A DNA stretch of 64,000 nt from positions 2,266 to 66,265 of the forward strand of contig JAJRSM010000048.1 of the NCBI GenBank assembly GCA_024278765.1. Reading direction: 5' to 3'. This stretch comes from Deltaproteobacteria bacterium (lineage in GTDB: Bacteria > Desulfobacterota > GWC2-55-46 > DRQE01). The position numbers and the translations under genes are program-made. Every line of letters starts with the position of its first letter. Within the stretch, counting starts at the first letter, position 1. The notes under the pieces were generated by a model. The model searched no databases and was not told where the DNA came from. It saw only the letters and a program-made list of their open reading frames with translations. Shown in pieces: positions 48,592-64,000 of the stretch.

Positions 48592-49476
48592 TCAGTTAGG
48601 GCCTATCATTATCAAAGAAAGATACCATGAAATAATACTCCTGCCGAAAAATATATAAAGCAATGCCCCCATAGATAAAAACGGCCCGAAGGGTACGGCG
48701 TATTTAGCACCCTTTCCCCTGAAGGTCATAATAAATACCCCTATAACAGCACCGGCGACCGAGCCGGTAAAGATCGTAAAGAGCACTCCCTTCCACCCGA
48801 CAAAGGCCCCGATCATTGCCAAAAGCTTTACATCGCCAAAGCCAAGGCCTTCTCTGCCGGTCAACACATAATATCCAAACGATATCAAGAATAAAAACCC
48901 GCCGCCAAGCACAACCCCGATAGCCGCATCTATTACAGAAGGATATAACGCCTCCGCCCCGCCTGCCGGAAGGACAAAACCAAACAGGCAGGCAATACCA
49001 AAGCCAACAACAATCCCGGGCAGACTTATGACGTTCGGTATTATCTTATGATCCAGGTCTATAAAGGCTACGGTCGCCAATGCTACGGTAAAGGCCGCGT
49101 AGGCAAAGAACTCAGGGGCAAAGGCAAAACGCCAGTAAAGGGCAGCTCCAAGCAAGGCAACCAATAATTCGACCATTGCGTAGCGCACGGAAAAGGTCGC
49201 CTTACAGCTTCGACACCGCCCGCCCAAAATAAAATAACTGATTATCGGGATATTATCAAAGCTACGCACAGGTGCGCTACAACTCGGACAACGCGAACCG
49301 GGCGTTACTACAGACAGATGCTCCGGAAGCCTATAGATACAAACATTCAGAAAGCTCCCGATACAGGCACCTATTATAAAGACAACTACTAAGTATATCG
49401 CCTCTGGCAATGGAAACCTCTCGTTTTCAAGATGGTTAAAGACACCTAAAGCAAGTACGCTAGTAGCACTGAGCAA
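48592..49476 (-). CDS. pilD: Prepilin peptidase PilD (A24 family)
   Basis: CPSC...CRSC zinc-binding tetracysteine motif, two catalytic Asp in polytopic membrane helices. 294 aa. Confidence 0.9.
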   Translation of the reverse strand: MLSATSVLALGVFNHLENERFPLPEAIYLVVVFIIGACIGSFLNVCIYRLPEHLSVVTPGSRCPSCSAPVRSFDNIPIISYFILGGRCRSCKATFSVRYAMVELLVALLGAALYWRFAFAPEFFAYAAFTVALATVAFIDLDHKIIPNVISLPGIVVGFGIACLFGFVLPAGGAEALYPSVIDAAIGVVLGGGFLFLISFGYYVLTGREGLGFGDVKLLAMIGAFVGWKGVLFTIFTGSVAGAVIGVFIMTFRGKGAKYAVPFGPFLSMGALLYIFFGRSIISWYLSLIMIGPN

Positions 49477-49642
49477 AGCATATTACCCGGCAACTCGGAA
49501 AGACAACAGCCCTTCACTAACTTTAGAACTATATTATATATTTTCGGGGATTTTCCAGATAGCTTTAGGACTACCCTTGGCAGCTTAACAGCTATCAACA
49601 GGTAGTCCCAACTTATCGAAAAAGACTTTGGGTCGATTCTAT

Positions 49643-49742
49643 ATGGCTACGGACCATCCCAGATGGCTACGGACCACCCCAGGTGGCTTCGGACCATCCC
49701 AGATGGCTGCGGGCTATCTCAGATAGTTTCGGGCATATATTC
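49643..49742. repeat. 20-bp tandem direct repeat array, about 4-5 units
   Basis: atggctacggaccatcccag, atggctacggaccaccccag, gtggcttcggaccatcccag, atggctgcgggctatctcag, then a decaying copy. The core GATGG-N7-CCATC is palindromic. Confidence 0.9.
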
Positions 49743-50141
49743 TTTTCTTGCGGCCTCTACGGCCCTTATAATATCTCCGGCAACTACGATTGCCTCTCTG
49801 GCATCGCGCTCTATTATGACCTCCGATGGTATCCCACCTGGAAGACTATCAGGGAAGCGGGAGGTCTTATAGTGTATATCAAGCCTGCCGGAGGGGCTGA
49901 TAAACTGTTTAAAGGCCTCTTCGTATGTAACGGCACGTTCGAGGAGTTCAACAACAGACTTGGTCTCGTGTGTATCTTCTTTTTTCAGGAAGAGATATGC
50001 ACGAAGTGACTTTGCCGCTCCCTGCTGCGCAAGAAAACATGCAGGTGCAAAAAAACCACCTTCCAGATTCCAATCAGCTGCCTTTAGATCGTACTCGGCC
50101 TGCCTTAACCAGCGTGCCGATTCCTTTGCAAGAACTTCCAT
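49719..50141 (-). CDS. HEPN domain protein with no adjacent nucleotidyltransferase
   Basis: 140-aa all-helical protein (EYDLKAADWNLEGGFFAPACFLAQQGAAKSLRAYLF...). A candidate R-x(3-4)-H HEPN motif is at GRLDIHY. No MNT partner ORF was found within 300 bp on either side. Confidence 0.55.
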   Translation of the reverse strand: MEVLAKESARWLRQAEYDLKAADWNLEGGFFAPACFLAQQGAAKSLRAYLFLKKEDTHETKSVVELLERAVTYEEAFKQFISPSGRLDIHYKTSRFPDSLPGGIPSEVIIERDAREAIVVAGDIIRAVEAARKEYMPETI

Positions 50142-50276
50142 TGTAGGACCTCCGTAAAGACTAGATTGCTTCGTCGTCTTGCCCCATCGCTACGCTCGGG
50201 GTTGCGACTCCTCGCAATGATAATGAATAAAAAAACATCTTAAATCACCCTGAAGACCCAGACTGAATTTTAAGAT

Positions 50277-51512
50277 CTAACTTCTATAGGCCGAGTTAAG
50301 CTCGACGTATCCGTGGCCGAGATCGGTCGTCCAGAGCCGGCGCGTAGCCTTTCCAGCCTTAAGGTCTACCACGACCTTGACCTCTTTCTTCTTCATAGCC
50401 TTTGCAGCTACTTGCTCACGCCCCGTATCAAGGCCGTCTTTTGCAACCATCACACCACCAAAGCTTATATCTACCTTATCAGGGTTAAACCTTATACCGG
50501 CAGCACCGAGTGCCGCCATTATGCGCCCCCAGTTCGGGTCACCGCCAAAGAACGCCGTCTTAACAAGCATCGAGGTCGCCAGAGTCCTTGCGGCCCTGTC
50601 GGCCTCTACAAGGCTTGCTGCCCCGACAATATCCAGCTCTATAAAGCGGGTCGCGCCCTCACCATCCTTGACTATCATCTTTGCCAGGTCGATAGAGAGA
50701 AGACGGAGTAGATTTTTAAAAGAGGCAAATCCCTCTGTTCCTGCCTTGTAAGTTACCCCTGAAACACCACTTGCAAAAGCCAGCACGGTATCATTGGTAG
50801 AGGCATCGTTATCAACGACGATGCTATTGAATGAGGCGTCAACGACCTCTTTAAGGGCCTTCTGCAAAAGCGCGCGGCTGATTGCCACGTCGGTCATAAA
50901 AAACACAAGCAGAGTCGCCATATTCGGGCAGATCATCCCCGCGCCCTTGGCAATCCCTGTTATCTTTACGGTTTTACTCCCAACCTTTACCGAACCAGTT
51001 ACAGTCTTCGAGAAAGCATCGGTCGTCATTATGGCTCTAGAGAAATCCTCAAGGCCACCGGCGGCGAGACTACCAGTAAGCACCGGTGCGGCCTCTATTA
51101 TTTTATCAATTGGCAGAGGCACGCCGATAACCCCTGTAGAGCAGACTAGCAACTCTCCGACCTTAAGCCCCAGTACGCCTTCAATGACATCTACCGTTGT
51201 TCTGGCGTCCTGCTCTCCCTGCTTCCCCGTACAGGCATTAGCATTACCGCTATTGACGACAACGCCTCGGACTTTCACCTTAGCCCCGACCCTCTCTTTT
51301 GATAAAATAAGCGGCGCTGCCTTGACACTATTCTCGGTAAAGACCCCTGCAACGGTTACGGGCACGTCACTTATGATAAGCCCCAGATCCAGCTCGGCGT
51401 GGCAACCAGCCCCAGACCCTTTATTTTTTTTTATTCCTGCGGCGACCCCAGAGGCCTGAAAGCCCGGCACTCCTAAATTTAAAGAACCACTCACTCCGAG
51501 GCTCCGCAACAC
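50277..51512 (-). CDS. argJ: Bifunctional glutamate N-acetyltransferase / amino-acid acetyltransferase ArgJ
   Basis: 411 aa. Conserved ATLL/TND region ([13 protein letters not shown]...DASTNDTV) holding the autoproteolytic Thr. Confidence 0.92.
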
Positions 51513-54307
51513 TTCTTATATTTTTTACCGCTATCGCAAGGGCACGGCTCATTACGCCCGATCTTTGGTGCGCCGCGAATTATCGGTGTATGCGTATGAG
51601 CGGCTTCTCCGTCGCCTTCACTATGATCGTCGCCGCCTTCTCCCGCATAGAAATCGCTCTGGTCTTCCAGCGTAGGCCCGCCGGCCACGCCGCCGCCTTC
51701 TTCGCCTCTGCCCAGCACCATATTCCGTTCATCGGTCGGACGCTCGGCATCGGCCTCATCCAGCACCTCGCCGTCGCCTTCTTTTATCTGAACCTTAAAG
51801 AGACGCTCTACGACATCACATTTAAAGGCCGTTAACATTCCGGCAAAGAGCTCAAAGCCCTCTCTCTTATACTCATTTAACGGATTCTGCTGCGCATATC
51901 CCCTGAGCCCTATTCCGCCCTTCAGATGATCCATCGTTAGCAGATGATCCTTCCACAGATTATCAAGCGTATGCAAGGTCATTATACGTTCGACCTGCGG
52001 CATAAGCTCCGGACCGATCTCGACGACCCTATGCTGATACACATCCCATGCTCTGCTCGTAAGCATCTCGGTTACGGCCTGCCTGCCGCCACCGCTGCCT
52101 ATATCTTCCTTGCCTATTCCTTCAATACCAAACTGCTTATCTATAGCCTCGATAAGGGCTTCAACCTCTGCCTCTTCTACCCCGCTCTTTTCATCTACAT
52201 GGTTAGAGACCAGTACCTCTGCGGCCTCACCGACAAACTCCTGCACCATATCCCTGAGCCCGATCTCGCCAAGGATCTGACGGCGGTACTCATAGACGAT
52301 ATTACGTTGCTGATTCATAACATCATCATACTCTATAAGATGCTTTCTCATATCAAAGTTATGTGCCTCAACCTTCTTCTGCGAGTTCTCAACGGCCTTG
52401 GAGATAATACTGTGCTCAATCGGCACGCCCTCCTCCATACCAAGCTTGCTCATAACCGCAGCGACCTTATCACTACCAAAGATCCTCATCAAGTCGTCTT
52501 CCAGAGACATATAAAAACGGGACTCACCCGGGTCTCCCTGACGCCCTGACCTTCCGCGAAGCTGGTTATCAATACGTCTTGACTCGTGACGCTCGGTGCC
52601 TATGATGTAGAGCCCGCCAAGTTCCAGAACCTGCTGCTTTTCCGCTTCACAGCTACGCTGCACCTCTGCAAGTGCTGCGTCATATTTCTCGCCTATGGTC
52701 GCGCCGCCTGCAAGGGCTATAGCCATAAAGCTAGGGTTACCGCCAAGGACGATATCAGTGCCTCGCCCTGCCATATTGGTAGAAAGAGTAATGGAATTTA
52801 AACGTCCGGCCTGAGCCACGATCTCTGCCTCACGCTCATGCTGCTTGGCATTAAGGACGTTATGCTTTACTCCCTGCTTTTTAAGCATAACGGATAACTG
52901 CTCTGAGTCATCGATTGATATAGTACCTACGAGCACGGGCCGCCCGCTTGCCGCGCATCCCTTAATATCTTCTATAACAGCCAGAAACTTCTCCCGCTTG
53001 GTCTTGTAGACCAGATCAACCCTGTCATCTCTGATCATAGGCTTATGTGTCGGCACTACCAGCACATCCAGCTTATAGATCGACATAAACTCCGGGGCCT
53101 CGGTCTCGGCCGTTCCTGTCATACCGGCAAGCTTATCGTACATCCTGAAGTAGTTCTGAAATGTAATCGTCGCAAGCGTCTGGTTCTCGTTCTCTATCTT
53201 GACCTTTTCCTTGGCCTCGACGGCCTGATGCAGCCCGTCGCTCCAGCGACGTCCGTCCATAAGACGCCCTGTAAACTCATCCACTATAACGACTGCGCCG
53301 TCTTTGACGACATAATCGACATCCTTACTAAAGAGAACATGGGCGCGCAAGCCCTGCCCTACGTGATGAAGCGTCTCGATGTTGCGAGGGTCATAGAGGT
53401 TTTCGATCTTTAATAGCTCCTCGACCTTTGTGACACCATCGTCGGTAAGGTGCGCCTGCTTTGCCTTCTCGTCGATTGTATAGTGCTTATCGGCCTTTAA
53501 AAAAGGAATTATCCCGTCTATCGTATAATATTTATCGGTCGATGCCTCGGCAGGCCCGGAGATAATAAGCGGGGTACGTGCCTCATCGACCAGAATGGAA
53601 TCGACCTCATCAACTATGGCAAAATTAAGCTCACGCTGGCAGTACTCGTCCATGCTGAACTTCATATTATCGCGCAGGTAATCAAAACCGTATTCATTGT
53701 TGGTGCCGTATGTGATATCAGCTCTGTAGGACTCACCGCGCGAACAGTCCAGCATCGGAATAATCGCACCCAAAGGCGTATCCGGCAGCTTCGGGTCTGC
53801 TATCAGGTTTATCTCATGCTGGATAACTCCGAGGCTCATACCAAGGGCGTGATAGACCGGGGCCATCCACTGTGCATCACGCTTTGCCAGATAATCATTT
53901 ACCGTAACTACATGGACGCCGCGCCCACTGATGGCATTTAGATATACCGGCAACGTAGCTGCAAGTGTTTTACCCTCACCGGTCCTCATCTCTGCTATCT
54001 TGCCTTCGTGCAGGGTTATACCGCCTATAAGCTGTACATCAAAGTGGCGCATACCAAGCTTACGCTTGGAGGACTCACGAACCGCCGCAAAGGCCTCAGG
54101 TAGTATATCATCCAGGGTCTCGCCGCCATCAAGCCTGGCTTTAAGTTTTGAGGTAAGCGCAAAGAGTTCTTCATCACTTAATGCCTCAAACTGCTGCTCC
54201 AGACTGTTTATCTTATCTACAAGCGGGGTTAATCGCTTTACCTCCCGAGCTACCTTAGTACCGAAGACCTTCTTTAATACTGAACCGAACATTTCACCTT
54301 TTCCCAC
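51491..54307 (-). CDS. secA: Preprotein translocase ATPase SecA
   Basis: 938 aa. DEAD-like motor domains and the C-terminal zinc finger [14 protein letters not shown]. Confidence 0.97.
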
Positions 54308-54438
54308 AGATCACGATCTTTAGGCAATGCCACTGAAGACAATGCCGCTGGCCGGCCTGAATTTTAGTTGTTTTGTAAAGAGCTAAATAATACATCAATC
54401 TAACACATTACCGTCCTTAATTCCAACTGCAAAAAACC

Positions 54439-54471
54439 AAAAAAAACCCCATCGGAGATAGACCGAGAGGG
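54439..54471 (-). terminator. Putative intrinsic terminator after the M23 peptidase gene
   Basis: Minus-strand CCCUCUCGG...CCGAUGGGG stem of about 8 bp with one mismatch, followed by a U8 run (plus A8 at 54439-54446). Confidence 0.45.
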
Positions 54472-54587
54472 TTTATAATAGGCAACTACTTAATTTATTG
54501 TCATGATTGTTTTTTCCGATACGCCGTTTACGTCGCTTATCCCCTTTAACCCGTTATCCCCGTTTGCACATAAGCAGAGAGCCCTGC

Positions 54588-55499
54588 TTAGTTGACTATG
54601 TACTTATAAGGATTGACGTGTACGCCGTTTACGACTATTTCATAATGGACGTGAGGTCCTGTTGAGCGTCCTGTATTTCCCATTGCGGCTATCTTCTCAC
54701 CGCGCTTTATCTTCTGACCGACCTTTACATTTATCTTTGAGAGATGCCCGTAGCGGGTCTTTGTACCGTAACCATGATTTATCTCGACCATCTTTCCAAA
54801 CTGCGGAAGCCTTGCTACCCGAGTAATAATACCATCGGCTGGTGCAAGTATTGGTGTGCCTATCCTGTTGGCGACGTCAACACCTTTATGTTTATGCTTA
54901 CGCCCTGTAAACGGGTCTTTTCTCTTTCCGAATGTAGATGTAACCCAGCCACGCGCAGGCATAATAGAAGGGGTAGAGGCGAGGATTGAAGATTGGCTCA
55001 AGAGGTGCTCCTGAAGCTCGGTAAAGCTCCTCTCCTGCAATCTAGTCTCGCCCTCCAGAGAGCTTATATCCGAGCGCATGTTTTCTATTAAGATCTTTTT
55101 CTTCTCTTCAACCGAGAGAAAAAAGGCCTGATCCGGAGCTGGCCCACCCATGCCGGTAAGGCCCTGATCTACTGTCTCGACAGGGGTCTCGATATTTGCA
55201 AGTATTCTGAGTTTTTTATCAAAGGTCTTGAGCTTTGCCATGCGGGTCTCAACATCATTAACGCGAGAAGACAAGGCCTGTAACTCTATTTTCTGTGAGG
55301 TATTTTCTTTGCGAAGCTCGCCATGATCCCGTACCTGTAGCTTCATAGTCCCGTAGTCTACTACGACATAGGCACATATAACCAGGAAGACGGCAAAAGC
55401 TACACTGCCTGCCCTGAATAAGTTTTGAGAAACCTTTATCTTCTTTGACTTTGAGGAGTCGCTTGGCAGGACTATAAAAGTTAAAGAACGCTTATTCAA
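54588..55499 (-). CDS. M23 family metallopeptidase (EnvC/NlpD-like murein endopeptidase) with N-terminal coiled coil
   Basis: HKGVDVA...G...DG and GNTGRSTGPHVHYEI are LytM-domain motifs. N-terminal transmembrane segment plus coiled coil. Confidence 0.88.
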   Translation of the reverse strand: MNKRSLTFIVLPSDSSKSKKIKVSQNLFRAGSVAFAVFLVICAYVVVDYGTMKLQVRDHGELRKENTSQKIELQALSSRVNDVETRMAKLKTFDKKLRILANIETPVETVDQGLTGMGGPAPDQAFFLSVEEKKKILIENMRSDISSLEGETRLQERSFTELQEHLLSQSSILASTPSIMPARGWVTSTFGKRKDPFTGRKHKHKGVDVANRIGTPILAPADGIITRVARLPQFGKMVEINHGYGTKTRYGHLSKINVKVGQKIKRGEKIAAMGNTGRSTGPHVHYEIVVNGVHVNPYKYIVN

Positions 55500-55859
55500 A
55501 ACTACAATCTCCTACAGGCCCTCAACCAAAGACCCGGAAAGTCTTAAGATCAAAGAACCCGAAACTGTTAGACCAGCTATAAGTTAATAACGCTTTATAT
55601 AAAGACCCGGCTTAATCTAAAATGTCTACTGTCTGCCTTATATATCGGTTGGTTCTGGAAAAACTTCAACACATCTACTACATTTACTACCTAAGTGTTA
55701 CAAGGCTTAATGAACAACTTGTAATAGTAATAGGTGCAACTCAGACTAAAACGGTTATAGATTGTCACAAAGCCCTTGAATTGTCAAGGTCTTTAGCTCT
55801 CCAGAGTTGACAAAAGAACAGGCCTAAAAGCCCCTTAGAGCTCTAAAGCTTACTTGTTA

Positions 55860-55888
55860 TTGACTTCGTAAGATTAACCATGTAAATT
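55860..55888 (+). promoter_or_regulatory. Candidate sigma-70 promoter for tolQ
   Basis: TTGACT-N17-TAAATT, about 100 bp upstream of the tolQ ATG. Confidence 0.3.
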
Positions 55889-55986
55889 ATGTAGATACAG
55901 TTAAAAGACTATAAACCGTTAGGATAAGAACAAAGGTTGTCAAAAACGGCACAGGCCGCTAGTGACAAAAGGAGATTATCTTTATT

Positions 55987-56691
55987 ATGAATGAAATTGC
56001 CTCGCACGGAAGAATCTGGGATATGGTCGTTGCGGCAGGACCAATGGTCAAGATGGTCTTGATCCTGCTGGTCGTCTTATCTATCGTCTCATGGGCTATT
56101 ATACTCTATAAAGTACTAATGCTGAGAAAGATAGAAAAAGACAGCTCCGCATACTACGACCTCTTCTGGCAGAAGAAAGACCTTGCGCATATGCTAAACG
56201 TAGCAAGCCAGTTTCCCTCTACCCCGATGACAAAACTCGTTAAAGGTGCTCACGACGAAGCAGCCCCGCTAATTAGCAAACTACGCGCTGGCTACGACGG
56301 CTCTGTAGTAGAAGAAGGTCTTGACTATATAGAACGAGTACTAAAAAAGACCATTACTATGGAACGTGCCGCAATGGAGAAGACAACGGCCTTTCTGGCC
56401 ACCACCGGCAGCACCGCACCATTTATCGGGCTCTTCGGTACGGTCTGGGGGATAATGAATACCTTCCGTGCCATTGGCACGCAAGGGGCGGCAAACCTGG
56501 CGGTCGTTGCCCCGGGTATCTCCGAGGCACTAATCGCCACAGCTCTTGGCCTTGTAGCTGCCATACCAGCTGTCGTCGGCTATAACTACATCATCTCTCG
56601 CACAGACAGGATAACAAAAGAGATGGAGGCCTTTAGCTCGGACCTGACCAATATACTGGAAAAATCGCTTAGGCACGCCTCTAAAAAATAA
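55987..56691 (+). CDS. tolQ: Tol-Pal system protein TolQ (MotA/TolQ/ExbB proton channel)
   Basis: Three transmembrane helices and the conserved TTGSTAPFIGLFGTVWGIM segment. Confidence 0.92.
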   Translation: MNEIASHGRIWDMVVAAGPMVKMVLILLVVLSIVSWAIILYKVLMLRKIEKDSSAYYDLFWQKKDLAHMLNVASQFPSTPMTKLVKGAHDEAAPLISKLRAGYDGSVVEEGLDYIERVLKKTITMERAAMEKTTAFLATTGSTAPFIGLFGTVWGIMNTFRAIGTQGAANLAVVAPGISEALIATALGLVAAIPAVVGYNYIISRTDRITKEMEAFSSDLTNILEKSLRHASKK

Positions 56692-56786
56692 TATAAAGGC
56701 TACCTCAACCAGCTCGGACCACTTAAGCGGCCTGAGCCACCGGGACGGATTTAAGCATTACAAGCCTATACCAAGGAAAAAGACCA

Positions 56787-57197
56787 ATGGCCGATAACAG
56801 AATGCTATCTAGTATTAACGTAACGCCTTTTGTGGATGTCATGCTGGTGCTACTCGTGATCTTTATGGTTACGACCCCTTTAATGGAGACAGGCATTGAC
56901 GTAAACCTGCCTGAAGTCGAGGCTGGCTCGGTCGAGGGTCGAGACGAACCCATTATAGTATCGGTCGATAAAAAAGGTGACGTCTTCATCAACAAAAAAA
57001 AGGTAAGCCTCAGTAAACTCAGAGGCAACCTTACCGCTATCGTAAAGAGAAGAAAAGACAAGACCGTCTACCTGAGAGCAGACGAAGCTGTCCCGTACGG
57101 CAAGGTAGCAAGAACAATGGCAACCATTCGCTCATCAGGGATAAAAAAGATAGCAATGATTACAGAAACTCCGACAGGTGGCAGTAACAGAAAATAA
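56787..57197 (+). CDS. tolR: Tol-Pal system protein TolR (ExbD/TolR family)
   Basis: INVTPFVDVMLVLLVIFMVT is the conserved transmembrane segment carrying the Asp. 136 aa. Confidence 0.92.
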   Translation: MADNRMLSSINVTPFVDVMLVLLVIFMVTTPLMETGIDVNLPEVEAGSVEGRDEPIIVSVDKKGDVFINKKKVSLSKLRGNLTAIVKRRKDKTVYLRADEAVPYGKVARTMATIRSSGIKKIAMITETPTGGSNRK

Positions 57198-57213
57198 CAG
57201 ATCAGCCACCCTA

Positions 57214-57385
57214 GATGGTTCAAGCCATCAGTCGATGGTTCAAGCCATCAGTCGATGGTTCAAGCCATCAGTCGATGGTTCAGGCCATCAGTCGATGGTT
57301 CAGGCCATCAGTCGATGGTTCAGGCCATCAGGCGATGGTTCAGGCCATCAGGCGATGGTTCAGGCCATCAGGCGATGGTTCAGGG
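57214..57385. repeat. 20-bp tandem direct repeat array, about 8.5 units, in the tolR-tolA intergenic region
   Basis: gatggttcaagccatcagtc x3, gatggttcaggccatcagtc x3, gatggttcaggccatcaggc x2 plus a partial copy. The core GATGG-N6-CCATC is palindromic. Variants appear in ordered blocks of three. Confidence 0.95.
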
Positions 57386-57441
57386 GCTACCTTAGCAGGT
57401 GACGGCTAAGGCCATTAAGGTCAGGTGGCAGGAGTTCTGGT

Positions 57442-58404
57442 TTGCAAAGCATACTCAACCAACAACAACCCGGGCTAAAGAAGTTTATTACAGCCTCGGT
57501 CATCATACATATAATAATACTCTTTCTCGGGCTCTTCTTTGCCAAGACCAATCCAGCCAGAGTCCTCTCGGCACCAACCTACACAACGGTAGAGCTAGTC
57601 TCGCCGCCTGCCAGGAGGGGTTCGTCAAAAAAAAGAACCGCCAGCAAACGCATCCTGAAAAAACCAGCTCCAATTAAAAACACCGCAAAGGCCACCAAGC
57701 CTGCCACCTCAAAAAAAGTAAGAATTAAAAAAACAACAAAAGTAAGAGCCAAAAAGACCTCGACCAAGGTCATCATACCCGGCACAACAAAGGCCAAGCC
57801 CACCACCACCGCCCAAAAGATCAAAGAGCTTGACAGCGTAAGTGCTGCTATCGCAGCGCTTCAGCAAACAGAGACCGAACGCTCAGAGGATGAACTCATA
57901 GAGCAGCGCATACAGGAGCTTGCCGGTAATACGCAGAGCCAGGCGGATATAGACGACGAGTTGGCAGGGCTCAGGGCCGAGATACTAGAGAACGGGATAA
58001 GCGTAGACGTATTTTCCGGGGATCTGGCTGGAGATCAGGCAGGTGCCGGCAGACCAGACGGCACTGGGGTAAGGTTCGGTGGCGGGTCGAGTTCAGTCAA
58101 TATAAATCAACTCGATATAGCATTTATAGAGTACTATAATACGGTAGGTTCGATGGTACGCTCGGAGTGGATCTTCCCGGGCCAGGCCGTACCTGGGCTC
58201 CAGGCCATCGTTACGATAAAGATAGCGCCTGACGGAAAGCTCTTGGCAATGAGAGTAGAACGCGCCTCAGGCAATACCCTCTTTGATCAATCTGCGATAA
58301 AGGCAGTTGAGAAGGTCGGTGATTTTCCGCCCCTGCCTGAAGATATCGACAAAGATTACCTTGAGATAGGAATACGATTTTGTCCCGGAGGTTGCAAACA
58401 ATAA
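57442..58404 (+). CDS. tolA: Tol-Pal system protein TolA
   Basis: N-terminal transmembrane anchor, a K/A/T-rich extended region, and a C-terminal TonB/TolA domain. Confidence 0.85.
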   Translation: MQSILNQQQPGLKKFITASVIIHIIILFLGLFFAKTNPARVLSAPTYTTVELVSPPARRGSSKKRTASKRILKKPAPIKNTAKATKPATSKKVRIKKTTKVRAKKTSTKVIIPGTTKAKPTTTAQKIKELDSVSAAIAALQQTETERSEDELIEQRIQELAGNTQSQADIDDELAGLRAEILENGISVDVFSGDLAGDQAGAGRPDGTGVRFGGGSSSVNINQLDIAFIEYYNTVGSMVRSEWIFPGQAVPGLQAIVTIKIAPDGKLLAMRVERASGNTLFDQSAIKAVEKVGDFPPLPEDIDKDYLEIGIRFCPGGCKQ

Positions 58405-59819
58405 TGGTGTTGCAAAAAATAAAGACACTGCACGCTATGCTAAGATCAGGTGCGGCAATCAGAAGATACAAAAAAATATGGTTACTGCCCTTACTCCTTG
58501 TCATTGTTACGACTATGGCGACCGCTGCCAACGCCAAGGTCTATATAGATATCGATTCACCAAGCGGCAAGCTCTTACCACTTGCCATCCAGCGGATAGC
58601 AGACCTGAAGCCGCCGGGCAAGAACATCAACCCTATAGGCACAGCGGCCCTTGAAGACGCTGCGGCATATAAACTCAAGTACATCATACTGGATACCCTG
58701 AAGGGCGACATCGAGTTCTCAGGCTTTTTTGAACTGCTCAATCAAGATGCCTTTATCGAGGAGCTGGCTGACTCCGGGCTTACCAGAAAGGAGACAGACT
58801 TCTCACTCTGGCGTATTATCGATACAGAACTTCTAATAAAAGGAGGAATACGACTGGACGGAGAAAAGCTCACCGCCGAGTTCCGGCTCTTTGATACAAC
58901 CCGCGAGACAGAGCTGCTGGCAAAGAGATACGTCGGGAGCAAGGACTCGCCAAGACTCCTGGCCCACCGCTTTGCCGATGACCTGATAAAAAAACTTACC
59001 GGTAAAAAAGGCATATACTCAACCAAGATTGCCTTTATCTCAGGGATCGGCGGCTCAAAAGAGGTCTATCTGGCAGACTACGACGGCCATAACATCAGGC
59101 AGGTCACCAGCAATGGATCGATTAATATTTCGCCTCGCTGGTCGCCGGACAGGAGAAAAATCCTCTACACCTCGTATATGACAGGACATCCCTCGATCTT
59201 CGAGCAAGAGCTGATTACCGGGCGCATCTCTGTCGTCTCCGATAAAAAGGGCTCTAATATCGGAGGACGCTGGTCACCTGACGGCACAAGCATAGCCTAT
59301 ACCGCAACAGGTAAGCACAGCCCTGAACTATACGTAAAAAAGAACGGCTCACGCAGGCCGAAACAACTAACGAACAACTACTCAATCGATGTATCCCCTG
59401 TCTGGTCACCCGATGGCAAGCACCTGGCCTTCGTATCTGATAGGGCTGGAAACCCACATATCTATATGATAAAATCGACAGGGGGTAAAGTCCGCAGGGT
59501 AACCTACAAAGGAAAATACAACACAGACCCAGATTTTTCACCAGACGGGCGGACCATAGCCTTTACCCGTCTTGACAAGACCGGCACCAATGTCTGGACC
59601 ATCCGCAGCGATGGCTCAGGGCTTAAGCAGCTCACCTTTGAGGGCAATAATCAGTCGCCCTCCTGGTCTCCAGATGGTCGTTATCTGGTATTCAGCCGCC
59701 AGTGGGCGGGCAAGGTCCAGCGGCTATATATAATACGTCAAGATGGCTCCGGCATGAAGCGCATTAAGATAAAAATAGGAAAGACCTCGGCACCATCGTG
59801 GTCTCCCTATAGACGATAG
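58404..59819 (+). CDS. tolB: Tol-Pal system beta-propeller protein TolB
   Basis: Repeated SPxWSPDG propeller blades. The likely start is the ATG overlapping the tolA stop as TAATG. The track ORF starts at 58380. Confidence 0.92.
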   Translation: MVLQKIKTLHAMLRSGAAIRRYKKIWLLPLLLVIVTTMATAANAKVYIDIDSPSGKLLPLAIQRIADLKPPGKNINPIGTAALEDAAAYKLKYIILDTLKGDIEFSGFFELLNQDAFIEELADSGLTRKETDFSLWRIIDTELLIKGGIRLDGEKLTAEFRLFDTTRETELLAKRYVGSKDSPRLLAHRFADDLIKKLTGKKGIYSTKIAFISGIGGSKEVYLADYDGHNIRQVTSNGSINISPRWSPDRRKILYTSYMTGHPSIFEQELITGRISVVSDKKGSNIGGRWSPDGTSIAYTATGKHSPELYVKKNGSRRPKQLTNNYSIDVSPVWSPDGKHLAFVSDRAGNPHIYMIKSTGGKVRRVTYKGKYNTDPDFSPDGRTIAFTRLDKTGTNVWTIRSDGSGLKQLTFEGNNQSPSWSPDGRYLVFSRQWAGKVQRLYIIRQDGSGMKRIKIKIGKTSAPSWSPYRR

Positions 59820-59870
59820 ATTACTCACGGAAACTGCAGTGGCCCGTGCCTTCTGGCAAATACCCTCTTA

Positions 59871-60845
59871 TTGAAAAAGGTGACTAACTTGAAAAAGACT
59901 ATTTTATCTTTAGCACTGGTGGCAATATTCGTTCTTGGTTGTTTTGACTACAGCTCGGCCCTAACCATTAAAAGGAAATCTCTTAGAAAGACAGTCGAAG
60001 AGATGGGGTTGCAGGTCAAAGCAGGGGCTGAAAGAAACGAACGGGCCGACGGCGCGATAGCAGATATAGGTGCGGATATAGATGTAATGCGCCAAGACCT
60101 GACGACCATGAACGGACAGCTTGAGGAAAAGGTATTTGATATGGAGCAGCTACGCGAGAATATCGATTTGCTGAGCCAGACCCTACAGAGACTGGAAGAG
60201 AGAATAAAGGCTCTAGAGACTCCTTCGCAGGATGCCATTAATAAAGAGATCAACGAGGCCCTGCAAAAGGAAGAACAAGAAAAAGCTCAGGCCGAGTTGT
60301 TCGCCTCACTAAAGACCGCTATCGAGGCACTTATCATAAGAGTTGATGCCATAGACGGTCTGGACGAAGACAGCGCAACCAAAGAGACCAATACAAAAAA
60401 GGACTCGACAATAACAGATCAATATATGACAGGGCTCGACCTCGTACGGGTAAAGAAAGACTACGCAAAGGCATTAATAGTCTTCAAGAGCTTTCTTAAG
60501 GAAAACCCCAAGCACGAACTGGCAGACAATGCCCGCTACTGGATCGGCGAGATACACTACGTACGCGGTGAATTCGGCAAGGCAGTCCTAGAGTTTAATA
60601 AGGTAATCAAAAATCACCCCGACGGCGATAAGGTCGCCGCCGCGATACTAAAACAGAGCTACTCCTTTGAAAAGCTCGGCTCTACAAAAGAAGCAGGCAT
60701 GCTTCTAAGAAAGGTCATCAAGAAGTATCCTAATAGCACCGAGGCTGAGATAGCCAAAGAACACCTAGAGAATCTCAAAAAAAAGAAGGAAACTATAAAG
60801 CCTGAGAAGGCAGTAGAACCTGCGAAGGCAGCTGGGGATAAGTAG
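59871..60845 (+). CDS. cpoB: Tol-Pal system protein CpoB/YbgF (coiled-coil plus C-terminal TPR)
   Basis: Signal peptide or lipobox, a coiled coil of about 100 aa, and a C-terminal TPR (ARYWIGEIHYVRGEFGKAVLEFNKVIKNHP). Confidence 0.75.
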   Translation: MKKVTNLKKTILSLALVAIFVLGCFDYSSALTIKRKSLRKTVEEMGLQVKAGAERNERADGAIADIGADIDVMRQDLTTMNGQLEEKVFDMEQLRENIDLLSQTLQRLEERIKALETPSQDAINKEINEALQKEEQEKAQAELFASLKTAIEALIIRVDAIDGLDEDSATKETNTKKDSTITDQYMTGLDLVRVKKDYAKALIVFKSFLKENPKHELADNARYWIGEIHYVRGEFGKAVLEFNKVIKNHPDGDKVAAAILKQSYSFEKLGSTKEAGMLLRKVIKKYPNSTEAEIAKEHLENLKKKKETIKPEKAVEPAKAAGDK

Positions 60846-60847
60846 GC

Positions 60848-61996
60848 TTGAGTATCATGACTACCGACGTATCCATAGTAAGGTGCGAGAGCTACGAGAT
60901 AGACCTTGTAAGACGCGCTGTAGAGGAATCTATCGAGTTAATCGGCGGTGTGGAGCGGTTTGTAAAGCGTGGAGAGCGACTTCTACTCAAACCTAATATG
61001 CTTGCCGCAAAAGAAGTCTCAGCTGCCGTCACTACGAATCCGGCTATAGTCCGTGCCGTGGCCGAGATTGTAAAAGACGCAGGTGGTATACCTGTAATAG
61101 GAGACAGCCCCGGAATGGGCTCAGCCCTTAAGGTCGGTAAGAAGTGCGGTATTTTCGAAGTTGCAGAAGAGCTCGCAATTGAATTTACTCCACTCTCAAC
61201 ACCTGTGGATGTCGAGGCCTCTGAAGGTGCTATCTTCAAACGTCTGGAGATCGCCAAAGAGGCTCTAGAAGTAGATGGTATAATAAACCTGCCAAAGTTT
61301 AAGACTCACGCGCAGATGTTCCTGACTATGGGGGTTAAGAATATCTTCGGCTGCGTGCCGGGCAAGCGTAAGCTCCAATGGCACTTTAGCGCAGGCATTG
61401 ACTCAACACATTTCGCAGGGATGATCCTCGACCTATACCTCTACCTGCGCCCTCGCCTTACCATCATGGATGCTATTATATCCCTGGAAGGTAACGGCCC
61501 TATGAGCGGAGACCCCAGGCAAACCAACTTTATCGCGGCCTCACCAGAGGCGATAGCACTGGACCGGGTCATGATAGAGCTAGTGGGTAGAAAGGTAGCT
61601 GAAGTACCTATAATTCAGAACGCAGAGTGGCGCGGCATTAAGGCAGCAAAACTTGAAAACATAAAGATCCGTGGCGCGGGTATAGACGACTTTTGGATCA
61701 AGGACTTTAAAGTACCTCCGACCTTGCATACCAACTTTGCTAATTCGCTACCTAATTTTTTAGAGAAGAGACTCCGGAAATCCATCACCTCGCGCCCACA
61801 GATCAAGCAATCGCAGTGCACAAAGTGTGGCCTATGCATAAAAGTATGCCCGCTTGATATCATCAACAGAATTGAAGGCAGTATATATATAAACCATACG
61901 GATTGCATCAGGTGCTTCTGCTGCCAAGAAATGTGCCCGTGGAAGGCCATCGATATAAAAGAAGGCTGGCTTAAAAAGATATTACCCGGACTATAA
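60848..61996 (+). CDS. DUF362 domain protein fused to a 2x[4Fe-4S] ferredoxin domain
   Basis: The DUF362 N-terminal pattern (LLKPNM...GDSPG) is assigned from memory. C-terminal CTKCGLCIKVCP and CIRCFCCQEMCP motifs. Confidence 0.65.
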   Translation: MSIMTTDVSIVRCESYEIDLVRRAVEESIELIGGVERFVKRGERLLLKPNMLAAKEVSAAVTTNPAIVRAVAEIVKDAGGIPVIGDSPGMGSALKVGKKCGIFEVAEELAIEFTPLSTPVDVEASEGAIFKRLEIAKEALEVDGIINLPKFKTHAQMFLTMGVKNIFGCVPGKRKLQWHFSAGIDSTHFAGMILDLYLYLRPRLTIMDAIISLEGNGPMSGDPRQTNFIAASPEAIALDRVMIELVGRKVAEVPIIQNAEWRGIKAAKLENIKIRGAGIDDFWIKDFKVPPTLHTNFANSLPNFLEKRLRKSITSRPQIKQSQCTKCGLCIKVCPLDIINRIEGSIYINHTDCIRCFCCQEMCPWKAIDIKEGWLKKILPGL

Positions 61997-62105
61997 AAAC
62001 CTCTAAGGTTTTATGGCCTTAGAGCCGAATTAGTCATAGATACCACTCTAGGAAACCGCCGTGACAACTACGCTAAGGCGGAGGCTTGATCTTACTTAAG
62101 AGCTT

Positions 62106-62220
62106 GTCTGTCCATGACAGTTTGATCCGCCCACGGCGGTTTTGATCCGTCCACGACGGTTTTGGTCCGTCCACGGCGATTTTGATCCGTCCACGGCGAT
62201 TTTGATCCGCCACGACAGTT
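62106..62220. repeat. 20-bp tandem direct repeat array, about 5.5 units, directly abutting the asmA ribosome-binding site
   Basis: tttgatccgcccacggcggt, tttgatccgtccacgacggt, tttggtccgtccacggcgat, tttgatccgtccacggcgat, tttgatccgccacgacagt. The array ends 1 nt before GGAG at 62221-62224 and the TTG at 62231. Confidence 0.9.
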
Positions 62221-62230
62221 GGAGACGACC

Positions 62231-64000
62231 TTGCTGCATCCAATAAGACATCTAAAGAAGAAGCCCATCTCTATCTTTATAGTATTCTTACTCATTGCGG
62301 GTACATTTCTCTTATTTTCTTATATAAGTATCGATATAACTGCGCACAAGGCATCGATAAAAGCCCACATTGAAGAAAATATTAACGCAACGATTGAGTT
62401 TGATAAAGCAATGGTTCGCCTACTGCCGTACCCAACGGTCACGGTAACAGAGCTTGCGATCTTTAGCAAAGGAGACGCTATTATAAGGAGCGGATCTTTA
62501 AAGATCTCAGTCTCTCCTATTGCCCTTCTAAAAAAACAAATCAATATAAAACGTCTAATTGTAAAAGACGGTGTAGCCCTGATAAAAAGATATAAAGACG
62601 GCAGCATTAATCTCTCTAAACTCAGGAAAGAGACCACAGGGACGGGGACGGTAGGGTTTCGTCCTGAAGAATTCAGGCTCATCGGTGGGCACTTTCTCTT
62701 TATCGATGAAAAAACAGAGAACGGCGGCCTTGAGATCTCAGAGGTCAGAGCCTACCTGCATAGCACCGGGCGCGGCTATACCTTCAGCCTCGGCGGTATC
62801 CTTGGCAAAGAATCGACCTTCATTCTATCCGGCCTTACCTCGCCGGAGCAGACAGGGCCGCGCGTATCCGGCACTATGGACCTGACAAATATAGAGGTTG
62901 CTACCATAAGACCATACTTGCACAAGGCCGTCGCAGATATCGCGACAGAAGGCTCGCTCGGAGCAAGCCTTGATTTTTCCTTTTCAGGCACCGAGGCTCA
63001 ACTAAACAGCGGTACGATCAAAGGCTCACTCTCATCAAAACGCATAGTACTCGCCCCTCCATATCCAATCAAAGAAAAACTGCATTCTCCAAGTAGCAGT
63101 GCCAATCTGGAGGTCGCCTGGAGTGCCGAGAACTTCCTATTTGCCCTCAATGATATCAGCGTTAAAGTAGCAGACCCCGAGACACACATCAGGCAAATTG
63201 AGCTCGGCGGCAAAGTCAAACTCAGTACCACCAAGGCACATGACTCAGGGATGATAGAGGCCGACCTGTATACCTCAGAGGTCGAGACAAAGTACCTGAA
63301 AAATCTAATCGACCTGAATAGCGCGCCCGTGGGTATTCGTCGTACCTTGGCTAACCTAAAAGAGGTCGAAGGCAAGGTAGCGATAAGACGACTTATAGTC
63401 TTATCGAGCTTAAGCCCACGCGTAAAAACCGGCAGGCGTGATAAAAAAATAGCACTCAAGCTGGAGTTGCTGGATGCAGGAATTACGCACAATGCCCTAG
63501 GCCATAAAGTCACCAGCCTAAGCGGTCATATTACCTATAAAGACGGCGAGCTGAAGCTGCTGGAGATAAAAGGACGCTACGGCGAGGAAGCCATAAAATC
63601 ACTGAATGGATCGATCTCTATTGGCCATGAACCGACTGTCAAACTCTCTCTTAACGCAGATCTAGATGCTGACGCGATCCTCAAAGAACTTAGAGCTTCA
63701 GGAAATATCCTACAGAAAAAATACATAAGAGCAAAAGGGCTTATCGGTATAAAACTGGAACTGGACGGCTCGCTTGCGCAGCTTAAATTCGGCAACTCAA
63801 AAGATAAAAAAACACAAAACACTAGAAAACTTCTTATCAACAGCACTCTGGACCTTACGCACACACACCTTGAGCTTGGTAACGGGCTAGACAAAGAGAT
63901 GGACTTCCCCTTGATCATCGAGGCAAAGACCCATGTCAAGGCAGGTACGATTACCAGCAATGCTCAGATCACAGCAGGCAGTTCGTCGGCAAAGGTCAAA
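62231..64000 (+). CDS. asmA: AsmA-family outer-membrane biogenesis protein; the gene runs off the window edge at 64000
   Basis: Open frame from the TTG at 62231 to the window edge (more than 590 codons). N-terminal transmembrane helix ISIFIVFLLIAGTFLLF, then an AsmA-like N-terminus (IKAHIEENINATIEFDKAMVRLLPYPTVTVTELAIF...LSVSPIALLKKQINIKRLIVKDGVALIKRYKDGSINLSKL). The ORF track lists no ORF that runs off the window edge. Confidence 0.75.
   Translation, partial: MLHPIRHLKKKPISIFIVFLLIAGTFLLFSYISIDITAHKASIKAHIEENINATIEFDKAMVRLLPYPTVTVTELAIFSKGDAIIRSGSLKISVSPIALLKKQINIKRLIVKDGVALIKRYKDGSINLSKLRKETTGTGTVGFRPEEFRLIGGHFLFIDEKTENGGLEISEVRAYLHSTGRGYTFSLGGILGKESTFILSGLTSPEQTGPRVSGTMDLTNIEVATIRPYLHKAVADIATEGSLGASLDFSFSGTEAQLNSGTIKGSLSSKRIVLAPPYPIKEKLHSPSSSANLEVAWSAENFLFALNDISVKVADPETHIRQIELGGKVKLSTTKAHDSGMIEADLYTSEVETKYLKNLIDLNSAPVGIRRTLANLKEVEGKVAIRRLIVLSSLSPRVKTGRRDKKIALKLELLDAGITHNALGHKVTSLSGHITYKDGELKLLEIKGRYGEEAIKSLNGSISIGHEPTVKLSLNADLDADAILKELRASGNILQKKYIRAKGLIGIKLELDGSLAQLKFGNSKDKKTQNTRKLLINSTLDLTHTHLELGNGLDKEMDFPLIIEAKTHVKAGTITSNAQITAGSSSAKVK

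Follow-up and report, generated by a model that had tools for sequence, protein, structure and literature searches.

Three 20-bp tandem arrays in operon spacers of an uncultured Thermodesulfobacteriota bacterium are probably hairpin minisatellites

What is the nature of three tandem arrays which share a period of 20 bp and lie within 13 kb of each other, in the spacers of genes for the cell envelope and secretion? This question is raised by a stretch of 64,000 nucleotides, referred to below as the window, of chromosomal DNA from an uncultured Thermodesulfobacteriota bacterium whose close homologs come from hydrothermal-vent metagenomes. A preliminary description had taken the arrays, here termed A, B and C, for a family of iterons placed 5' of envelope genes, possibly a new class of cis elements which an envelope-stress regulator or a nucleoid protein could bind. 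A comparison of the window with related contigs (loci L001-L026) and viral contigs (L032-L034) favors another explanation. With a probability of roughly 60%, the arrays are lineage-specific, copy-number-variable minisatellites which amplify a small local hairpin module by slippage.

The arrays themselves are real and non-random, as had been proposed. They were detected with Tandem Repeats Finder and a lag scan across the whole window (coordinates in Table 1) and represent its only strong non-coding tandem repeats. Strong self-match in the lag scan was limited to lag 20 at A, B and C, including multiples of it at B, and to a coding 18-bp repeat (23065-23246). Only three of the 19 intergenic gaps of at least 60 bp, namely those with the arrays, exceeded their shuffled controls, reaching 36-40 of 40 matches at lag 20 vs. 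22 at the shuffle 95th percentile. In the sense of its flanking minus-strand genes, array A repeats the unit CCATC-TGG-GATGG-TCCGTAG, with perfect 13-nt hairpins beginning at 49654, 49674, 49694, and 49714. Array B is composed of CCATC-AGKC-GATGG-TTCARG units in three blocks of identical copies (internal variant structure 3+3+3), and in array C, about five 20-bp units of CCGYC-CAC-GRCGG-TTTTGAT come after a founder hairpin at 62108 (CTGTC-CAT-GACAG). The GC content at the arrays amounts to 0.52-0.65. Array A is located 233 bp upstream of pilD and overlaps the stop codon of a HEPN-domain gene, array B takes up part of the spacer between tolR and tolA, ending 58 nt ahead of the start codon of the tolA-like gene, and 4 nt separate the end of array C from the ribosome-binding site (GGAG) of an AsmA/DUF748 gene. 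The modules occupy spacers between same-strand genes throughout. The assertion that each array lies 5' of an envelope gene is therefore literally right for pilD, tolA, and asmA, but each array lies equally 3' of the preceding gene on the same strand.

The arrays can be called a family with respect to their architecture, not their unit sequence. The best circular match among the A, B and C consensuses covered 10 of 20 positions (P ~0.5), which is no more alike than shuffled units, and with gaps allowed only the pair A-B was borderline (P=0.05, one of ten tests). Including the relatives, arrays with a period of ~20 bp number six: beside A, B and C of the window, L011 and L025 carry array D on the 5' side of pilD, L012 has array E in the tolQ-tolR spacer, and L014 has array F in the spacer that separates the M23 peptidase gene from secA. 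All six hold exactly one perfect 5-bp inverted repeat with a loop of 3 nt (4 nt in B), followed by a spacer of 6-8 nt. Moreover, the 5' arm always fits YYRYC (CCATC, CCACC, CTATC, CCGCC, CCGTC, CTGTC, CTACC or TCGCC), the variants sharing the purine/pyrimidine pattern and differing by transitions only, with identical arms in A and B (CCATC/GATGG). Among shuffled units, 3-10% feature a 5-bp inverted repeat with a 3-4 nt loop and 0.02-0.4% one with a YYRYC arm. As to how the spacers are oriented with respect to transcription, a leave-one-site-out scoring favored the antisense strand for C and the sense strand for the other five arrays, without being significant. The idea of a restriction site, based on CCATC, the recognition site of BccI, was dropped, as the pentamers occur at the expected frequency elsewhere in the window.

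The stems of these modules are preserved through sequence change. Over 37 hairpins, imperfect ones included, 90.8% of the cells pair compared to 77.5% in shuffles, and 42 cells show a double change compared to 17, both values being reached by none of 500 shuffles. If the registers are slid by 1-2 columns, pairing drops to only 23-33%. Variant units of array A retain the short-loop stem (CCACC-TGG-GGTGG, CTATC-TGA-GATAG), and units 1 and 2 of array C differ in only two positions, which are mutually paired. Retention of the stems through such paired changes means that a real nucleic-acid hairpin is preserved. A longer-loop register (GATGG-N6/7-CCATC) was ruled out as the relevant hairpin, because the variant units break it and keep the register with the 3-nt loop. 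According to our count, roughly 4-5 compensated stem changes stand against ~12 single changes within the arrays, and seven G.U wobbles on the sense strand against ten C.A mismatches; the wobbles thus show no sense-strand bias that would set RNA apart from DNA.

The 13-bp palindromes recur at 19-21 bp, about two helical turns, and arrays are found upstream of pilD, tolA, and asmA in the window as well as of tolR and secA in relatives. These features would suit phased sites, whether iterons or operators, to which an initiator, a nucleoid protein or an envelope-stress regulator binds, with one dimer per palindrome at every second helical turn, and lambda-type origin iterons and plasmid centromere repeats look similar. 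Nevertheless, it is very unlikely that the arrays serve this purpose. The unit sequences are so unlike between arrays that they cannot all be read by a single sequence-specific regulator or initiator, a sequence-reading dimer would not select for symmetric changes that compensate each other in the two half-sites, and close relatives lack arrays or have them in other copy numbers. In addition, the window features no rep, par or adjacent regulator gene and no origin signal, its other envelope operons (pilQ, pilMNOP, minor pilins, PGA_cap) lack arrays, and B is positioned inside an operon. The assignment to an envelope-stress or nucleoid regulator is accordingly not upheld.

The term iteron does not hold either. 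Tandem direct repeats of ~17-22 bp are indeed present (period 20, 4.4-8.6 copies), and the replication iterons of theta plasmids and lambda-type origins, like plasmid centromere repeats, are likewise tandem repeats of ~20 bp with a spacing of about two helical turns and sometimes an internal dyad. Iterons, however, share one sequence and sit in an origin beside the gene of the cognate initiator and an AT-rich unwinding region, whereas the window shows no rep or dnaA gene, no AT-rich origin and no common consensus of the arrays. The GC skew ranges from -0.2 to -0.3 across 47 consecutive minus-strand genes and is ~0 across the plus-strand tol/asmA genes, and the AT skew climbs to +0.18 at the right side of the window. 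This pattern of GC skew implies a constant replication component without a switch of sign at an origin or terminus. A replication origin at the strand switch near 55.7 kb, which was considered as well, was ruled out by this decomposition. The skews are consistent with coding-strand and replication-strand biases of similar size and a tol operon transcribed head-on to replication.

The number of units changes strongly among relatives. Divergence from the window at fourfold-degenerate sites is ~0.2 for L001, L003, and L009, ~0.5 for L012 and 0.6-0.7 for L006. In the tolR-tolA spacer (site B), 8.6 units in the window compare to two units of 19 bp in L003, ~3-4 degenerate units in L001, 2-3 units in L009 and L025 and none in the close relative L023 or the more distant L012 and L006, and this spacer comprises just 25 nt in L024, which is also a close relative. 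The DUF362-asmA spacer (site C) of the window holds ~39 extra nt, equal to two units; L001 and L003 have fewer units, L006 has none, and L025 features three hairpins with different stems (TGTCTG/CAGACA, CTGTC/GACAG, CCGCC/GGCGG). At the HEPN-pilD site (A), ~4.5 units of the window face 2-3 units in L025 and none in L012, L014, and L006. Upstream of pilD (site D), ~2 degenerate units remain in the window, and 3.4 copies of 21 bp are present in L025, 4.1 copies of 21 bp in L011 and a single hairpin in L012 and L014. More distant relatives with the same gene order carry no arrays. A class of conserved cis elements is hence not supported, since the arrays are lost or altered in copy number in close relatives and absent from these distant ones. 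The expansion of array B must be very recent, as its units are 98% identical.

The origin of the units points in the same direction of a local amplification. The most degenerate unit of array A comprises the last codons and the stop codon of the HEPN gene (GCCCGAAACTATCTGAGATA), and the HEPN 3'-end coding sequence which matches this first unit exists without any array in L012 and L014; the gene itself lacks array A in these two loci and in L006. For A, the comparison thus shows a module taken from pre-existing local DNA. Likewise, the D hairpin is a conserved single hairpin in the more distant L012 and L014, with a compensated change in L014 (CTATC/GATAG vs. CTACC/GGTAG) at a fourfold divergence of ~0.5. 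Differences in copy number together with this local origin indicate that the arrays are young and that their copy number changes far more quickly than point substitutions build up. In these respects, they resemble bacterial intergenic minisatellites (variable-number tandem repeats, VNTRs), which are head-to-tail repeats of 10-100 bp units in intergenic regions with a copy number that varies between close relatives, near-identical newest units and degenerate edges; the arrays feature a head-to-tail unit of this size and a copy number that varies at the same locus at a fourfold divergence of ~0.2. In contrast to ordinary minisatellites, several arrays of unrelated sequence share one module (5-bp stem, 6-8 nt spacer, period 19-21) with a YYRYC arm in one 13-kb block. 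In prokaryotes, intergenic regions show a general enrichment of tandem repeats (PMC12418385), and Geobacter is an example of other former Deltaproteobacteria in which multicopy sequences abound between genes; the tandem repeats described there measure 7-8 bp and follow another design (PMC2700814).

The formation of such minisatellites can be pictured as follows. The module, a mini-hairpin of 13-14 nt (5-bp stem with YYRYC arm, 3-4 nt loop) plus a spacer of 6-8 nt, would fold in single-stranded DNA at replication, whereupon the nascent strand may re-anneal one module back and whole modules may be gained or lost by slipped-strand mispairing. The size of the module (~13 + 7 nt) would set the common period of ~20 bp. 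Template switching within the hairpin, a (mild) selection on the stem, or both might keep the arms complementary. Presumably, the arrays are transcribed inside polycistronic mRNAs, and an effect on expression by a longer and more structured intercistronic spacer would be a by-product and not a conserved function.

The same design, including the variation in copy number, arises elsewhere, in unrelated viral hosts. A scan of viral sequences for the C-type module revealed three related viral contigs with CCGTCAATGACGGCGAGTTA (CCGTC-AAT-GACGG-CGAGTTA) in 4, 2, and 2.3 copies. The array of L033, the only one of the three for which open reading frames (ORFs) were listed, overlaps the stop codon of a 1463-aa ORF and adjoins an AT-rich region with 9-bp repeats. 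The corresponding viral scan for the CCATC module gave 0 matches, and a metagenome scan for B-type doublets (GATGG-N6-CCATC-N4) yielded eight unrelated loci, none of them orthologous.

A different explanation would place the function of the stems in the messenger. Selected intercistronic stem-loops in the tolQRA-B, DUF362-asmA, and HEPN-pilD messages could adjust how strongly upstream and downstream genes are expressed relative to each other: they might block 3'-5' exonucleases, offer cleavage sites for RNase III or RNase E, or uncouple translation. The REP/BIME elements of E. coli tune expression within operons in such ways. This would fit the location of all arrays between same-strand genes, the lack of a predicted terminator between tolR and tolA, the retention of stems by paired changes and the persistence of hairpin units at sites B, C, and D across relatives, in the case of D with a compensated change. 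The predicted RNA fold of array B is exceptional as well (-114.8 kcal/mol, z=-9.2 vs. shuffles). Still, those of A and C are no better than shuffles (z=-1.2 and 0.0), wobbles show no bias toward the sense strand, and no Rfam family matches the arrays; the only Rfam match near one of them is a chance hit to mir-434 with 25.8 bits vs. a gathering score of 100. As the spacer is dispensable in L024 and the array in L023, L012, and L006, and copy number varies freely, selection at the RNA level is possible but rather unlikely. The stability of whole arrays as RNA was dropped as evidence of function, given that only B is exceptional and controls with shuffled units were mostly non-significant.

Several RNA- or promoter-related candidates were tried besides. 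Type III toxin-antitoxin RNA repeats (ToxI-like) and the sponge RNAs CsrB/RsmZ are also tandem short structured units, and array A lies beside a HEPN (RNase-fold) gene. ToxI-type repeats, however, measure 34-40 nt and precede the toxin gene, whereas A is located downstream of the HEPN gene, overlapping its stop, and B and C have no toxin as neighbor. A CsrA sponge of the CsrB/RsmZ type, suggested by GGA in some A and C loops, was dropped because the B loops vary between TTCAAG and TTCAGG, GGA is unconserved and Rfam gave no match. Tandem intrinsic terminators were ruled out: two C units fit a loose pattern, but with stems of just 5 bp and a T-run that L001 and L003 have lost; arrays A, B, and D have no T-run. 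A CRISPR array was ruled out since the 6-8 nt between the hairpins are themselves repeated within each array. At the end of array C, a look-alike of a sigma-54 promoter (TGG-N9-TTGC) was judged coincidental, given its overlap with the ribosome-binding site and the sole usable start codon.

The common arm pattern, with variants that differ by transitions and identical arms in A and B, could alternatively reflect a small mobile or enzyme-propagated hairpin element, in which a REP-associated tyrosine transposase (RAYT) or an IS200/IS605-type HUH enzyme recognizes YYRYC-N3-GRYRR and copies modules locally and between nearby spacers. It would agree with this that the arrays cluster, their six sites across relatives falling into five spacers of a single 13-kb block. 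A covariance model was built from two modules, with hits counted at E<0.05. In the window, its hits were limited to A, B, C and the D remnant (49564-49605), and in relatives they were confined to the same five spacers. The other 49 kb of the window, the outgroup loci and a 21-kb part of the L025 contig with pilus and aromatic-amino-acid genes gave no further copies. Across the ~170 kb covered in the clade, the modules are consequently undispersed; in addition, the arms of array A derive from coding sequence that existed before, the window holds no transposase gene, and the GTAG next to hairpins is not conserved (present in some A and D units, replaced by GAAG, GCAG or AAAG in others). Propagation by such an enzyme is decidedly improbable. 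Like REP/BIME/REPIN elements and GTAG-type palindromes (SMAG), the modules are small GC-rich extragenic hairpins between same-strand genes, which may cluster, and the influence of REPs on mRNA stability in operons illustrates how the arrays may act. REPs, though, occur as tens to hundreds of scattered copies which follow a family consensus, keep a conserved GTAG and usually form inverted pairs, a layout that is typical of REPINs. The arrays are strictly head-to-tail with 5-bp stems and a sequence of their own, and none of their modules was found outside the arrays in the window or the loci of relatives.

It is extremely unlikely that the arrays encode a repetitive small protein or result from assembly errors. 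ORFs of 64-74 aa do span A and B, as listed in advance, and short-read assemblers can mis-size repeats; contig L011, for instance, starts exactly at the edge of array A, as contigs typically do where an assembly breaks in a repeat. The ORFs are nonetheless mechanical, because 20 and 3 have no common factor and no frame of the B unit contains a stop codon. They have no ribosome-binding site and are not conserved, the spacers of relatives differing by large indels. A Pfam search gave no match above the curated cut-off, and the exact translations are absent from a collection of 15 billion proteins which does include TolR of the same 68.6-kb contig. The early judgment that these ORFs are spurious is confirmed, and a translation of the repeats is rejected. 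An artefact is further contradicted by independent assemblies from several samples with the same modules at the same sites and by the internal variant structure of array B.

Some observations weigh against an explanation by slippage of neutral minisatellites. Slippage is inferred from the pattern of the arrays. The shared YYRYC arm and the excess of compensated changes are beyond what simple neutral slippage predicts and could stem from an enzyme specific for hairpins or from selection on a structure. In four relatives, sites B and C still have an array or degenerate units, which is compatible with some retained function. Moreover, the arrays cluster in one 13-kb block: they occupy three of the seven spacers between 49.4 and 62.3 kb and none of the 12 elsewhere in the window (Fisher P ~0.04, our calculation), the comparison covering ~170 kb of clade sequence. 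As the block consists almost wholly of envelope and secretion genes, a position upstream of envelope genes is inseparable from a position in this neighborhood. A bolder interpretation would regard the modules as a previously undescribed class of structured cis elements of this Thermodesulfobacteriota lineage, a 13-nt CYRYC-N3-GRYRG mini-hairpin plus a 6-8 nt tail with selected complementarity, spread between nearby operon spacers. Their copy number would act as an expression dial for envelope and secretion genes (tolA, asmA, pilD, secA) through mRNA processing or decay or a hairpin-binding factor. This is quite doubtful.

The genes around the arrays are arranged in two groups. On the minus strand, pilR, pilS, and pilD are followed by arrays D and A, HEPN, argJ, secA, and the M23 peptidase gene. 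The plus strand features tolQ, tolR, array B, the tolA-like gene, tolB, a cpoB-like gene, DUF362/4Fe-4S, array C, and asmA/DUF748, and the remaining 49 kb of the window contain housekeeping and pilus genes. Neither tRNAs nor Rfam families at gathering score were detected in the window. The start of pilD was placed at TTG 49410, preceded by GAGAGG, because all close homologs have 272 aa; the mechanical ORF 48592-49476 (294 aa, TTG 49476) is too long. Ribosome-binding site (AGGAG) and start region of the tolA-like gene are invariant across all relatives. The tol cluster (55987-61996) is ordered tolQ-tolR-tolA-tolB-cpoB-like and then DUF362/4Fe-4S, with no pal (OmpA-family lipoprotein) between tolB and cpoB. 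MotA/ExbB and MotB/OmpA genes are found downstream of asmA in L006 and L025. The HEPN gene is solitary, without an adjacent nucleotidyltransferase (MNT) partner, and its position between argJ and pilD is kept in all relatives, as far as L006.

Further repeats and motifs occur in this region. The 18-bp tandem repeat (23080-23225, also 22174-22211 and 22376-22422; 8.1 copies, 97% matches) lies inside the gene of a 921-aa TPR protein (21378-24143, minus strand) and hence represents a 6-residue coding repeat; similar 18-bp coding repeats exist in the cpoB-like and pilQ genes of relatives. Between HEPN and argJ, a palindromic element GATTGCTTCG...CTCGCAATGA is present (window 50150-50235; L009 60-130; L025 3053-3530), which includes a 14-bp tandem duplication (GCTTCGCTCCGTGG x2.2) in L009, L025, and L026. 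In L025, this spacer is expanded to 477 bp with ~three copies. The palindrome looks like a small dispersed element similar to miniature inverted-repeat transposable elements (MITEs) or REPs and unrelated to the 20-bp arrays. Upstream of pilD and directly downstream of the D hairpin, a motif of ~40 nt, TCCTAAAGCTATCTGRAAAWWYCCCGAAA(A)TATATAATATAG (49527-49569, minus strand), is conserved even in L012 and L014 (fourfold divergence ~0.5) and is probably the promoter or an operator of pilD-pilS-pilR. The M23-secA spacer (54308-54587) is a repeat hot spot with 9-bp repeats in the window (54537-54564), 4 x 15 bp in L012 (4557-4616), and 2.2 x 21 bp in L014 (2435-2481, array F); it also holds a conserved stretch, TTGCAGTTGGAATTAAG..., and a hairpin with a T-run which is likewise conserved and resembles a terminator. 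Finally, a hairpin with an 8-bp stem (62001-62024) just past the DUF362 stop codon is conserved in L001 and L003. Its T-run exists on the minus strand only, so that it resembles a terminator for a strand without an incoming gene.

Table 1. Coordinates of the arrays, of matching modules in viral contigs, and of the genes next to the arrays (window positions unless a contig is named).
Feature	Position	Strand	Details
Array A	49643..49734	-	Tandem Repeats Finder, period 20, 4.1-4.4 copies, 82-85% matches
Array B	57214..57384	+	Tandem Repeats Finder, period 20, 8.6 copies, 98% matches, score 300
Array C	62121-62214 (62108..62214 with founder hairpin)	+	Tandem Repeats Finder, period 20, 4.8 copies, 90% matches
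Degenerate D modules, CTACC-TGTT-GATAG and CTGCC-AAG-GGTAG, ~2 units	49564..49605	-	Covariance model, 21.9 bits, E=0.007
Viral 20-bp module copies	L032 1677-1756 (x4); L033 8159-8198 (x2); L034 4668-4713 (x2.3)		Viral scan
Prepilin peptidase gene pilD	48592..49410	-	Next gene downstream of arrays A and D
HEPN-domain gene	49719..50141	-	PF05168, E=1.4e-21; first unit of array A consists of its 3' end with the stop codon
tolR/exbD	56787..57197	+	PF02472; upstream of array B
tolA/TonB-like gene	57442..58404	+	Downstream of array B
DUF362/4Fe-4S gene	60848..61996	+	Upstream of array C
AsmA/DUF748 family gene	62231..64000	+	TTG start 62231; continues past window end; downstream of array C

If the arrays are products of slippage only, the ORFs across them should not be annotated as proteins, and the arrays can break or mis-size short-read assemblies, but could in turn serve as strain markers for this hydrothermal lineage. 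The convergence of unrelated array sequences on one module and one period suggests a structural "ruler" for the birth of minisatellites in bacterial operon spacers. In case the stems were selected at the RNA level, a change in copy number would offer a simple and evolvable way to rebalance expression inside the tol and pil/sec operons.

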